Below are positions 55,647-59,258 of a stretch of 64,000 bases of DNA, one piece after another. The stretch lies in the sequence record OP870146.1; one strand, written 5' to 3'. The notes under the pieces were generated by a model, which was not told the DNA's origin, searched no databases, and saw only the letters and a program-made list of their open reading frames with translations. The DNA comes from Escherichia phage vB_Eco_F27. The position numbers and the translations under genes are program-made. The number at the start of each line of letters is the position of its first letter. The stretch's first letter is position 1.

Positions 55647-56306
55647 ATGGCAACACCAAAAGTATCATTTTCGCCTAGTGATATTCTATTTGGGTTGCTA
55701 GATCGTATTTTCAAAGATAACGCTACTGGAAAGGTTTTAATGTCCCGAGTAGCGGTAATTATTCTTTTGTTCCTAATGGCACTAATATGGTACAAAGGAA
55801 GTATTTTGCTGGATTATTATGTAAGAGCTAAGTATGATACTTATACTGAAATAATCCAAAAAGAACGAGCTTTACGTTTTGAATCTGCGGCTCTAGAACA
55901 ACTGCAAATAGTTCATATCTCATCTGGTGCAGATTTTAGTGCTGTGTATTCTTTCAGACCTAAAAACTTAAATTATTTTGTCGACCTTATAGCTTATGAA
56001 GGCAAACTACCTAGCACAATTTCTGAAAAGTCCCTTGGCGGATTCCCGGTGGATAAAACGGCCAATGAATATATAATTCATTTAAGTGGCCGTCATTTCT
56101 CATCTAAATCAGAATTTGCATTTTTGCCTACAAAATCTAAGACTGCCGAACTTTCTTATATGTATAGTTGTCCATACTTTAATTTGGATAACATCTATGC
56201 CGGAACTGTAACGATGTATTGGTATAAGGGGAATAATATACTTGAGGAAGACCGCTTAGCGGCTATATGCAACCAAGCGGTCCGAATACTAGGAAGGGCT
56301 AAATAA
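55647..56306 (+). CDS. t: holin T
   Basis: ORF track 219 aa; single N-terminal TM plus large periplasmic domain; translation recognised as T4 holin. Confidence 0.9.
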   Translation: MATPKVSFSPSDILFGLLDRIFKDNATGKVLMSRVAVIILLFLMALIWYKGSILLDYYVRAKYDTYTEIIQKERALRFESAALEQLQIVHISSGADFSAVYSFRPKNLNYFVDLIAYEGKLPSTISEKSLGGFPVDKTANEYIIHLSGRHFSSKSEFAFLPTKSKTAELSYMYSCPYFNLDNIYAGTVTMYWYKGNNILEEDRLAAICNQAVRILGRAK

Positions 56307-56579
56307 TTAGTTGTTAGAATACATCGCTAAATGACGATAAATATTTTCAAAACCTTCATTGAATTCACTAATCAGTGTTTTCTTTTCTTCGGCAGTTAAA
56401 TTTGTAATTAGTTTTCTAAAAGAATTCTGATTTAGCTGCCGACCATCTTTTTTAATTCCAATCTCATTCAAGAATCCGATGAAACTTGCTCGGTCTTCAA
56501 CAATATCTTCCCTAGAGAATTTAATCAAAATAGAAGCAATAGTAATAATTTCACGTACGATTTCAATGTCTTTATTCAT
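56307..56579 (-). CDS. asiA: anti-sigma70 factor AsiA
   Basis: ORF track 90 aa; translation (MNKDIEIVREIITIASILIKFSREDIVEDRASFIGFLNEIG...) recognised as T4 AsiA. Confidence 0.9.
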   Translation of the reverse strand: MNKDIEIVREIITIASILIKFSREDIVEDRASFIGFLNEIGIKKDGRQLNQNSFRKLITNLTAEEKKTLISEFNEGFENIYRHLAMYSNN

Positions 56580-56625
56580 AACGTTTTATTCATTCCACTT
56601 AGTTGATATGGATATAGTACCATTA

Positions 56626-56787
56626 TCAGTGTTGATTGTAAACGGCTTTTTCTACGCTTTTAACGTAATCAATGTAGTCTTCCTGTTCGTACGAGTGTAA
56701 GGCCAAGAACTGAACTAATAGTTCATTATAGACTAAAGCCTCACGCTCACGTTCGGCCTCTACTACGTTCTGAAGATTATGACTCAT
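56626..56787 (-). CDS. hypothetical small protein, 53 aa
   Basis: ORF track frame; start placed at MSHNLQ with AAGGAA RBS. Confidence 0.4.
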   Translation of the reverse strand: MSHNLQNVVEAEREREALVYNELLVQFLALHSYEQEDYIDYVKSVEKAVYNQH

Positions 56788-57076
56788 ATCGTTCCTTATA
56801 ACTATCAATATAGTCCTGTATGTCGAAAAACGACATTTCATATTCTAGGGCGTTAAGAGCCCGTTCTTCAGTATAGTCAGAACCAAAGACGATAGTGATT
56901 TCACCAGGCTTCATGTGATTGAAATCGACACTAAAAGGAATACGAGAACATACTTCGTCTGCCATATCTACGATAACACTACGACACACTTCTCGGTTAA
57001 CCTGATAAAGCTCTGCAAGTTCTTCACATCGAATAACAAGTTCAGTGGCAGGATTTTCTTTGATTTTAGTAAGCAT
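56777..57076 (-). CDS. acidic protein, possibly Arn-like (anti-restriction), by position and composition
   Basis: ORF track 99 aa, strongly acidic; lies in the asiA-motA interval where T4 has arn. Confidence 0.35.
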   Translation of the reverse strand: MLTKIKENPATELVIRCEELAELYQVNREVCRSVIVDMADEVCSRIPFSVDFNHMKPGEITIVFGSDYTEERALNALEYEMSFFDIQDYIDSYKERYES

Positions 57077-57150
57077 AGTCTTTACCCTTATGTTTTTGTT
57101 TACGTTTAGATTGAAGTTCTGATTTCTTCTTGTCCTTATGGACGGAAGCC

Positions 57151-57378
57151 TTATTGAAATCGTGTTTTGCTACAAGATTGTTCATAATGCTTTATAACCT
57201 CGTTTAAACATTTATCGGTAAAAGAAAACTTTTTAGCCACAGAACATTCGATAATGTGCTCTTTCAAATCTTTAGAGTCGGTATAACCCATCTCAGTAAT
57301 AAAGTGGCGAATTAAAGCTTTATTCTTATCATTAACAGAATTAAAATAATCTGCTTTAGAATCAATTATTCTCATCAT
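57151..57378 (-). CDS. hypothetical protein
   Basis: ORF track 75 aa. Confidence 0.45.
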   Translation of the reverse strand: MMRIIDSKADYFNSVNDKNKALIRHFITEMGYTDSKDLKEHIIECSVAKKFSFTDKCLNEVIKHYEQSCSKTRFQ

Positions 57379-57643
57379 CTAATTTCCTTAATTGATATTG
57401 CAACGAGCTAATAATTTCTTCGTTCATTTTAATATACATGTCGCGCAAGAAAGGTTTTAACCCATCACGAATAATTGCTAACGTATCACCTTTACATAAA
57501 TTAACCAAATAAGGATGGTCTAAAGCATCCCAACCAGGCTGATTAGCATACATACCATAATTTTCTTCCATCATATGATTAAGACGTTTGATATCTTGGA
57601 TACGTGATTCAATAGCATCTTTCTGGAGTTGTTTAATATTCAT
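57362..57643 (-). CDS. hypothetical protein
   Basis: ORF track 93 aa. Confidence 0.45.
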   Translation of the reverse strand: MNIKQLQKDAIESRIQDIKRLNHMMEENYGMYANQPGWDALDHPYLVNLCKGDTLAIIRDGLKPFLRDMYIKMNEEIISSLQYQLRKLDDENN

Positions 57644-58104
57644 TAGTAAAGGTCCTCTGAATAAAGTTCTTTCTCACTTCCACCACGTTCAATACGTACC
57701 TGTCCAGCATATGTTGCAATAATCATTGCTTCTTCACGTGTCCAGTAATTAGAGTATTGGTCAATAAAGCCTTGGTCGTCGCCACAAACTTGTTGTGAGA
57801 CTAATTGAGGACCAACTATATCAAGTACTTCAGCCATATCTTTAGAGTAATGACGAACTCCAGGAATAACCAGAGTTCCACCGCTCTTCAATTTAAACCT
57901 ATTAGCTGCACATACTATAACACGTTGAACTTTTTGGTCATTGTTCCAATAGCACGTTTGCCAACAGATTTCAGGAACTTCATTCATTACATCATCAGCA
58001 GAATAATTATAACAGTAGGACTGGAATTTTTCTGCTAGACTTTCAGGAGTCTCACGAGACAAGGCCAAATCTAATAGCTCTAAACGTTCTTTAAATGATT
58101 TCAT
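57643..58104 (-). CDS. hypothetical protein, 153 aa
   Basis: ORF track; ATGA coupling. Confidence 0.5.
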
Positions 58105-58430
58105 TTAAACCATTCCTTAATACGTTGCCAAATAGATTTTTGTGCTTGTTTATTTACACCAATCGAACGAATAACCGGTTGTGACTGCTGGTATTCTTTA
58201 TAATCTTCTTTATAGATTTCGTAAGCTGCATCAACAAATGAACTGATCGCTGCCATGTAGTTTTTATGAAGGCCAAATGGCGCGTCATTATTTTCACGAA
58301 TAACCATATATTGGCCTGCTTTAATCTTTACAATTGTCCCTAAATAAGCCCCGTGGTACCAAATATCCCATCCTTCCTGAGTAGGTTCTGCGCATTTACG
58401 AAGTTCGTTAATAATATTCAGCTTATTCAT
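58101..58430 (-). CDS. hypothetical protein (motA.1 position)
   Basis: ORF track 109 aa. Confidence 0.5.
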
Positions 58431-58440
58431 TATGTATTCC

Positions 58441-59073
58441 TCACAGTACGTTAGTTACAAGGGTAATGATTTCTTTGGACACATTAGGGAAGTCAATGTA
58501 AGTATATTTACCACCGATCTTAATCTTAACATCATTTTCAAGAGAAGTAAACAGCTTTGATTCAGTTTCTGACATGTTGTATGCAAAGATTCTAAGAGAA
58601 CCATCTCGACGAATTTCGATTTGGCGAATACCTAGAACTCGTTTTGCAAATCGAACTTCCAAGTTACTACGGTTTTCACCAATTTCCTTAACTTCAACTT
58701 TATCTTTAATATTTTCAAAAACAAAGTTTGCTAGTTCATGCATTTCAGGAGTAACTCCACGTGCTTTTCTAGTGTTACGTTTCTGAAGAAGTTCTGGAGC
58801 ATTTTCTTGGGCAAAGAGGTCTGCAGCTTTTTGGATAATATCCATTGCTTCGCCTGTTGCTACAAGTCCATCACCGGATTTTTCGACTAAACCTTTCTTA
58901 ATCAATACACCAATGTTAGAGTTAACAACCGATGCATTGTATTCCGCTTCCAGAGCTTCACGGACATTGGCAGCAGTGGTGAAGTTGTTCTTAATGATAT
59001 AAACCATTATTGCAGCAGTTTTTTCATTCAGAGCGTTTTCAGAAGCTTTGATGATGTAAGTAACTTTAGACAT
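58441..59073 (-). CDS. motA: MotA middle-transcription activator
   Basis: ORF track 210 aa; translation start MSKVTYIIKAS recognised as MotA; early promoter 59114-59141. Confidence 0.88.
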   Translation of the reverse strand: MSKVTYIIKASENALNEKTAAIMVYIIKNNFTTAANVREALEAEYNASVVNSNIGVLIKKGLVEKSGDGLVATGEAMDIIQKAADLFAQENAPELLQKRNTRKARGVTPEMHELANFVFENIKDKVEVKEIGENRSNLEVRFAKRVLGIRQIEIRRDGSLRIFAYNMSETESKLFTSLENDVKIKIGGKYTYIDFPNVSKEIITLVTNVL

Positions 59074-59113
59074 TTTATTTCTCCAATTTGGTTGTTTTGT
59101 TTTGATAGGTCTA

Positions 59114-59141
59114 TAATATCATGTTTGAAGCACATGTAAAC
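59114..59141 (-). promoter_or_regulatory. T4 early-type promoter (motA)
   Basis: GTTTACatgtgcttcaaacatgaTATTAT on minus strand. Confidence 0.5.
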
Positions 59142-59166
59142 TGTTTTGTGAGAAAAATGCACAAAA

Positions 59167-59182
59167 GGGAGCCGAAGCTCCC
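59167..59182 (-). terminator. UUCG hairpin terminator after gene 52
   Basis: Minus strand GGGAGC-UUCG-GCUCCC followed by UUUUGUGCAUUUUUCUC. Confidence 0.55.
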
Positions 59183-59258
59183 TAATCATGTTTGTCCAAC
59201 CAATACAGCCAAATCACTAGTGCAGCTATTGCACTGAGAAATCCTAAGGCTAGGGCAC

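Follow-up and report, generated by a model that had tools for sequence, protein, structure and literature searches.

A probable, highly diverged Arn orthologue in the motA-asiA early gene cluster of the RB69-type phage vB_Eco_F27

The early gene cluster between asiA and motA was analysed in Escherichia phage vB_Eco_F27 (sequence record OP870146.1), using a stretch of 64,000 nucleotides (nt) which is referred to below as the window and whose positions are given throughout. The cluster encodes a strongly acidic protein of 99 amino acids (aa; 56777-57076, minus strand), which is very probably a highly diverged orthologue of the T4 protein Arn and, like it, a putative DNA-mimic anti-restriction protein. 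The DNA at 56300-59100 displayed 97-98% identity to more than 100 sequenced Mosigvirus (RB69-like T-even) phages, in which the same genes are annotated; ATK47, the O157 typing phages 3 and 6, and S143_2 are among these relatives. To judge from its sequence, the interval is the RB69-type (Mosigvirus) form of the well-known T-even motA-arn-asiA early cluster, and it is largely ordinary.

All genes of the cluster are encoded on the minus strand. In the direction of transcription they follow each other as motA, open reading frames (ORFs) of 109, 153, 93, 75, 39, 99 and 53 aa, and asiA. The T4 genes asiA, asiA.1, arn, arn.1, arn.2, arn.3, arn.4 and motA are arranged in the identical order. A first-pass annotation of the window, made from the letters alone, had described six overlapping or coupled ORFs (53, 99, 75, 93, 153 and 109 aa) between asiA and motA. 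Each of them was recovered at the reported position, on the minus strand, but the interval holds seven genes, since the 39-aa ORF at 57066-57185 had been overlooked. The close spacing was also correctly described: neighbouring genes overlap by 1, 4, 11, 11, 17 or 35 nt or are otherwise separated by a gap of 10 nt. Such packing indicates that the genes are probably translationally coupled. Matches to PHROG families were obtained for all small ORFs (E-values from 1e-22 to 2e-69). Because of these matches and of their annotation in the relatives mentioned above, the small ORFs are considered to be real genes and not chance reading frames.

The first gene of the cluster is motA (58441-59073, minus strand), coding for the activator of middle transcription (Pfam MotA_activ, 2.4e-39; MotCF, 2.1e-8), the product of which is 51% identical to T4 MotA. 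The last one is asiA (56307-56579, minus strand), coding for the anti-sigma-70 factor (Pfam AsiA, 2.4e-32), with 73% identity to T4 AsiA. Five of the ORFs between them were assigned by BLASTP comparison as counterparts of T4 genes. The 109-aa ORF (58101-58430, minus strand; PHROG 1594, 2.5e-52) is a full-length arn.4 orthologue with 74% identity to T4 arn.4, which is annotated with 68 aa (E 3e-37), and the 153-aa ORF (57643-58104, minus strand) corresponds to arn.3 (75% identity, E 3e-86). The 93-aa ORF (57362-57643, minus strand; PHROG 1844, 1e-40) is assigned to arn.2 (41% identity, E 1e-20), and the 75-aa ORF (57151-57378, minus strand; PHROG 4452, 9e-40) to a full-length arn.1 (74% identity over 42 aa, E 3e-22). 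The assignment of the acidic 53-aa gene (56626-56787, minus strand; PHROG 5245, 1.1e-30) to asiA.1 is weak, with 30% identity over 40 aa and a pairwise E-value of 8e-4, while position and acidic composition are alike. The mechanically defined ORF of this gene reaches 71 aa; PHROG 5245 aligns to residues 19-71 only, and a protein of 53 aa is annotated in the relatives. The 39-aa gene (57066-57185, minus strand) codes for a basic protein of the DUF7230 family (PF23876, 5.4e-13; PHROG 1359, 3.8e-22). Some further matches were far below the cutoffs and were taken as chance, namely those of arn.2 to the PADLOC model Hp1 (2e-3) and of arn.4 to REase_II (2e-3), as well as weak Pfam matches in the cluster (KapB, Adeno_VII and others).

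The 99-aa protein contains 21 aspartate and glutamate versus 10 lysine and arginine residues, resulting in a net charge of -11 and an isoelectric point (pI) of 4.37. The corresponding values for T4 Arn are -9 and 4.55. The first-pass annotation had considered the protein as markedly acidic and as an Arn-like candidate, noting that arn lies in the asiA-motA interval of T4. The protein is indeed acidic to that degree, and T4 arn is located in the interval, between asiA.1 and arn.1, which is precisely the slot occupied by the 99-aa gene. The same annotation had been cautious about homology to Arn, and this caution was justified, as direct sequence comparison failed. No similarity to T4 Arn was detected by BLASTP, and the Pfam family DM_Arn (PF22134) did not match the 99-aa protein even at E<=10, while T4 Arn itself was matched at 8e-56 with the same library. 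Scans against NCBIfam and PADLOC did not deliver any Arn-type match either. When the two shallow family alignments, that of the 99-aa protein and that of Arn, were compared with hhalign, a P-value of 0.016 and a probability of 2.8% were obtained, which is insufficient alone. A phmmer search against PDB sequences returned only a tandem dimer of the PP7 coat protein (4e-4). This score was due to double counting of two 10.9-bit repeats and, as the single-copy chain reached an E-value of 0.73, the match was attributed to chance.

The relation to Arn became visible through intermediate sequences. In a word-indexed search of 5.8 billion proteins, the family of the 99-aa protein appeared narrow, with six clusters only, at identities of at least 82%. 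When 1.84 billion representatives were searched exhaustively with HMMER, two additional members were identified, P0138 (62% identical to the 99-aa protein) and P0141, a metagenomic protein of 91 aa. P0141 aligns over its full length with the 99-aa protein (29% identity, E 2.1e-4) and is at the same time 33% identical to T4 Arn over 90 aa (pairwise BLASTP, E 7e-11); its match to DM_Arn is weak (0.015). A tblastn search with P0141 against 50,697 phage genomes recovered both RB69ORF259c (1e-7) and a Tequatrovirus gene named 'inhibitor of MrcBC restriction' (8e-4). On its metagenomic T4-like contig (L004 60-335), the P0141 gene is located two genes upstream of asiA and adjoins the holin gene t. 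With P0138 and P0141 included in the profile, hhalign aligned the 99-aa family with the Arn family over 84 columns (residues 9-92 versus 7-92) with a P-value of 2.6e-6 and a probability of 88.6%. Aligning the two families together revealed 21 hydrophobic columns of the core and 8 acidic ones that both have conserved, including a C-terminal D/E-I-x-D-Y motif. The structure model of the 99-aa protein displayed the fold of T4 Arn (PDB 3WX4), and no other structure matched it as well as Arn, which led the next hit by a clear margin. In addition, the GenBank record of the BASEL phage Bas46 (MZ501056) labels a 97%-identical gene as 'anti-restriction nuclease protein Arn'.

These data also bear on the alternative that the 99-aa protein is unrelated to Arn, being a small acidic replacement at a recombination-prone slot which merely adopted a common alpha/beta fold. 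Such a replacement is very improbable given that P0141, which lies in the identical slot, displays significant full-length similarity to either family, and given the P-value of the profile comparison and the distance of Arn from the next structural match. P0141 is also unlikely to be a recombinant chimera, since it resembles each family throughout its length. Homology to Arn is therefore derived from the sequence bridge provided by P0141, the profile comparison, the synteny and the fold match, with which the net charge agrees. The candidate named in the first-pass annotation thereby gained the similarity to Arn that direct comparison had not revealed, and the 99-aa protein is very probably a highly diverged Arn orthologue.

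The comparison with T4 Arn (PDB 3WX4; PF22134) revealed both conserved and altered features. The two proteins share their location within the motA-asiA cluster (between arn.1 and asiA.1), a similar length (92 aa for Arn), the identical order of secondary-structure elements, the 21 core positions, and the acidic C-terminus. In contrast, the overall identity is about 14%, the acidic tail of the window protein is seven residues longer, and it contains three cysteines while Arn has none. The acidic surface is conserved only in part, and the protein escapes detection by BLAST or DM_Arn. The 99-aa protein is predicted to retain the fold of Arn together with its hydrophobic core and some of its acidic surface.

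McrBC is a modification-dependent nuclease which attacks hydroxymethylcytosine (hmC) DNA that is not yet sugar-modified, and H-NS is a silencer. As far as the work of Ho et al. (2014) is summarised in PMC7827196, T4 Arn inhibits McrBC and is a dimeric DNA mimic binding H-NS at its DNA-binding domain. The DNA of RB69-type phages contains hmC, which is afterwards arabinosylated (PMC6024577). With such hmC-based DNA, a McrBC-type threat to the unmodified hmC DNA is therefore plausible. By analogy with T4 Arn, the 99-aa protein, expressed early in infection, would most likely be an acidic decoy that mimics DNA as a dimer and fills, with its negative surface, the DNA-binding site of a host protein, for which McrBC and/or H-NS are the candidates. 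Newly made or injected phage DNA that is under-modified would be a substrate of McrBC. Other phage DNA mimics, T7 Ocr, phi29 p56 and ArdA, are likewise small and strongly acidic early proteins, which are thought to fill the DNA-binding sites of host proteins. The interpretation of the interval as a T-even cluster, with the 99-aa protein as its diverged Arn and a DNA mimic, is considered likely. Several points weigh against it. The structure model was built on only 7 closely related sequences. Just 8 acidic positions are common with Arn, so that the arrangement of charges may not be the same nor, as a consequence, the target. Finally, action of the Mosigvirus protein on McrBC or H-NS would be an extrapolation from T4 Arn.

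The choice of target deserves consideration in the light of the variation observed at the arn slot. At least three to four forms of the Arn fold, scarcely alignable with one another, occupy this single slot in different T-even lineages (T4, RB69, VR25/JS10 and P0141 types), the Gaprivervirus VR25 (L011 1501-1782) carrying a further variant. The genes on either side have kept 40-80% identity between lineages. On these sequences, the arn slot is a local hotspot of rapid divergence. A true Arn homologue with a target other than McrBC, such as another type IV restriction enzyme, or a nucleoid or defence protein, could be envisaged, since very divergent variants in one slot across T-even genera are typical of an arms race over targets. 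The low identity to T4 Arn and the few acidic columns in common point in the same direction, as does the binding of H-NS besides the blocking of McrBC that the summary in PMC7827196 reports for T4 Arn. The DNA of the window lineage, which carries arabinosyl-hmC and not glucosyl-hmC, represents an additional difference. However, the core and the acidic D/E-I-x-D-Y tail are kept in all variants, McrBC and H-NS are both present in the E. coli hosts of either genus, and the observations point to no other target. A changed target is a serious alternative, but a less likely one than a DNA-mimic role resembling that of T4 Arn.

The second protein of interest in the cluster is the 153-aa product, for which the first-pass annotation recognised no family. 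It was identified here, on the basis of the identity given above, as the Arn.3 orthologue (UniProt Y16D). All its close homologues carry a precomputed match to the Pfam family PF26092 (T4_Y16D), to which the protein is assigned. Our own Pfam scan of the protein remained empty because PF26092 is newer than the Pfam version scanned. The protein consists of an N-terminal two-helix module (about residues 1-30), with short helices at residues 4-8 and 20-29 in the AlphaFold2 model, and of a conserved T4_Y16D core (about residues 45-153). The predicted local distance difference test (pLDDT) score of residues 45-153 is 88-98 over most of the domain and about 80 over the last ~25 residues, and the protein ends with SEDLY. 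No solved fold was matched by this confident model, and no relative was found by sequence in the PDB, neither with the single sequence nor with a profile of 63 members. Likewise, no Pfam fusion partner was detected among the 63 homologues, and the genomic contexts of the distant ones were uninformative.

Across the alignment of these 63 sequences, A66, A67, R84, H85, Q111, G112, F113, D115, R123 and Q135 are invariant. N68, R69, Q116 and a C-terminal L-x-S-E-x-L-Y motif are nearly so, while the N-terminal extension is variable. The conserved core positions form an enzyme-like set, and the function of the domain is possibly enzymatic. The cysteines and tryptophans noticed in the initial reading (5 Cys and 3 Trp) are mostly unconserved: C47 and C65 (C or S) are the sole ones kept widely, and no metal-binding pattern was recognised. 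In BFVD, numerous phages carry the core domain, which is also seen as a part of 'large polyvalent proteins'. This distribution fits a role of Arn.3 in the conflict with the host, though it names no activity. The functions of arn.1 to arn.4 were stated to be unknown in a preprint of June 2026 (10.64898/2026.06.19.733364).

The N-terminal module of Arn.3 resembles CmdA, the antitoxin encoded by the middle gene of cmdTAC. PD-T4-9, or CmdTAC, is a toxin-antitoxin-chaperone defence system which acts specifically on T-even phages, and CmdA is described as having two helices at its N-terminus by which the toxin CmdT is bound, folded and neutralised (PMC11618068). The comparison was made with the PADLOC model PD-T4-9_B, which is CmdA by gene order, and with an N-terminus derived from primers. 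The model (PDLC04070) matched residues 1-30 of Arn.3 (window positions 58015-58104, minus strand) with an E-value of 2.4e-7. It also matched seven out of ten other Arn.3 homologues examined from T-even phages, T4 Arn.3 included (2.5e-10 to 2.6e-3), and always with positions 1-31 of its 77. The N-terminus of CmdA from strain ECOR22, read from published primers, is MLSFEQRMA, and that of JS98-type Arn.3 contains LSFKDRMA. This agreement indicates that the similarity is to CmdA itself. Searches for other cellular carriers or for a full CmdA by blastn against E. coli genomes and by tblastn against plasmids gave no result. A scan of 185,579 genomes with a degenerate pattern returned 37 pattern matches, none of which was confirmed.

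In the Arn.3 of Escherichia virus TH41 type (P0012, 203 aa), two tandem CmdA-like modules precede the T4_Y16D core. The same module of about 30 residues was further observed mid-way in gp63 of Klebsiella phage Geezett (L005 2189-3151), an unrelated acidic and proline-rich protein of 320 aa encoded by a 50-kb siphovirus.

The similarity raises the question of a counter-defence function, in which the N-terminal hairpin of Arn.3 would serve as a stable, degron-less mimic of CmdA that neutralises the CmdT-like mRNA ADP-ribosyltransferases of abortive-infection systems of the CmdTAC type. The matches of the PADLOC model, the resemblance of the primer-derived N-terminus, the two short helices predicted where CmdA has its helix pair, and the specific action of CmdTAC on T-even phages are compatible with this idea. 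Infection data argue against it, however. Bas46, a Mosigvirus with an Arn.3 that is 99% identical and has identical residues 1-30, plates at 3.3e-5 on cmdTAC, and T4, T2 and T6 are likewise restricted by CmdTAC. Moreover, the escape mutations of T4 map to alt.-3 and not to arn.3 (PMC11618068), the similarity is confined to about 30 residues, and the presence of the module in the unrelated Geezett protein suggests that it may be a generic interaction module. Mimicry of CmdA by Arn.3 is thus regarded as improbable.

The same caution applies to a reading of Arn.3, which T-even phages have conserved, as a two-module protein, in which the hairpin would be a decoy antitoxin or a tap into the CmdTAC circuit and the T4_Y16D domain would hold a second activity; this is equally doubtful. 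The likeness consists of the first ~30 residues of Arn.3, which correspond to the first ~30 positions of the CmdA model, with a short N-terminal helical pair in both. In contrast to CmdA, Arn.3 continues into the folded T4_Y16D domain and not into a disordered chaperone-addiction tail, and its C-terminus (SEDLY) is not an Ala-Ala ClpX degron. The genetic context is also different from that of CmdTAC, as Arn.3 is surrounded by arn.4 and arn.2 and no ADP-ribosyltransferase or SecB domain was found in the cluster, and phages with Arn.3 are still restricted by the CmdTAC of ECOR22. The N-terminus of Arn.3 may instead represent a portable interaction module.

Comparison of the window with T4 suggests that small genes may have been overlooked or shortened in the T4 annotation. 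The 39-aa DUF7230 protein scored 49.3 bits against a curated Pfam cutoff of 27. It is lysine-rich, with a pI of 10.1 and a net charge of +8. Its gene has 35 nt in common with arn.1 and 11 nt with the Arn gene, and is annotated in phage S143_2. An intact ORF with 79% identity is present in T4 between arn.1 and arn (NC_000866, L001 2200-2081) and is unannotated in RefSeq. In both phages, the basic 39-aa peptide (+8) is encoded directly upstream of, and overlapping with, the acidic Arn gene (-11 in the window).

The T4 orthologues of the other genes (arn.1 to arn.4; UniProt Y16B, Y16C, Y16D, Y16F) are found in identical order with 41-75% identity. A difference concerns arn.1 and arn.4, which are full length with an ATG start in the window, while both start further downstream in T4 RefSeq. 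When the arn.1 frame of T4 was extended, 70% identity over 74 aa to the 75-aa window protein was obtained, and the current T4 annotation covers the C-terminal 43 aa only. The '70-nt intergenic region' between arn.2 and arn.1 of T4 (L001 2307-2393; NC_000866 about 161806-161892) is in frame with arn.1, and its translation is 70% identical to the N-terminal half of full-length Mosigvirus Arn.1. A TTG stands in T4 where Mosigvirus arn.1 has its ATG, and the geometry of the overlap with the arn.2 stop is identical. In a 2026 preprint on ArcZ, this region was taken to be untranslated RNA that contains an RNase E site. No such 70-nt untranslated gap between arn.2 and arn.1 exists in the window. As for arn.4, the T4 frame is conserved upstream of the 68-aa start (L001 3335-3457), with 78% identity over 109 aa; there, a GAGGA ribosome-binding site is followed by ATA where the window gene has its ATG. 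From this, T4 arn.4 appears either to use a non-canonical start codon or to be N-terminally truncated in the reference strain.

The non-coding features of the region are few. The best promoter match was a sigma-70 early-promoter-like site upstream of motA (59113-59140, minus strand; TTTACA, 16 nt, TG-TATTAT), which agrees with the consensus at 10 of 12 positions and has an extended -10 element; a promoter function is proposed from this consensus match. A second promoter-like site precedes asiA (56614-56642, minus strand; TTTACA, 17 nt, TG-TACTAT). This one is weak, with 9 of 12 positions plus the TG, and in the consensus scan the number of sites did not exceed that of shuffled sequences. The cluster would accordingly be transcribed from the putative early promoter upstream of motA, running through into asiA. 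No MotA-box consensus was found on the coding strand within the interval, and a scan of the interval with Rfam gave no credible match. Between gene 52 and the putative motA promoter, a GC-rich hairpin (AGGGAGC-TTCG-GCTCCCT, minus strand) was observed at 59166-59183, followed by a T-rich run. A rho-independent terminator is annotated at this position, between gene 52 and motA, in ATK47.

In the public records matching 56300-59100, the counterpart of Arn is nearly always named 'hypothetical protein', Bas46 (MZ501056) and vB_Eco_F31 (H95) being exceptions. The label 'anti-restriction nuclease' has, on the other hand, spread onto homologues of arn.1, arn.3 and arn.4 (including PHROG 4452). The contribution of the present analysis is modest. 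It lies in solid grounds for regarding the 'hypothetical protein' of RB69-type phages as a divergent Arn that the current Pfam model does not cover, along with several corrections of the annotation and a speculative lead on Arn.3.

The mislabelling covers most of the ~178 sequenced RB69-type phages. Correct annotation matters for phage therapy and typing, in which RB69-type phages are used, and when sensitivity to type IV restriction is to be predicted. The CmdA-like module of Arn.3, the 39-aa gene of T4 and the coding capacity of the region regarded as intergenic in T4 and T2 studies bear on CmdTAC and on the regulation of the arn transcript by ArcZ. The versions of the arn slot themselves offer a compact set of natural variants for studying how DNA mimics change their targets or evade host proteins.

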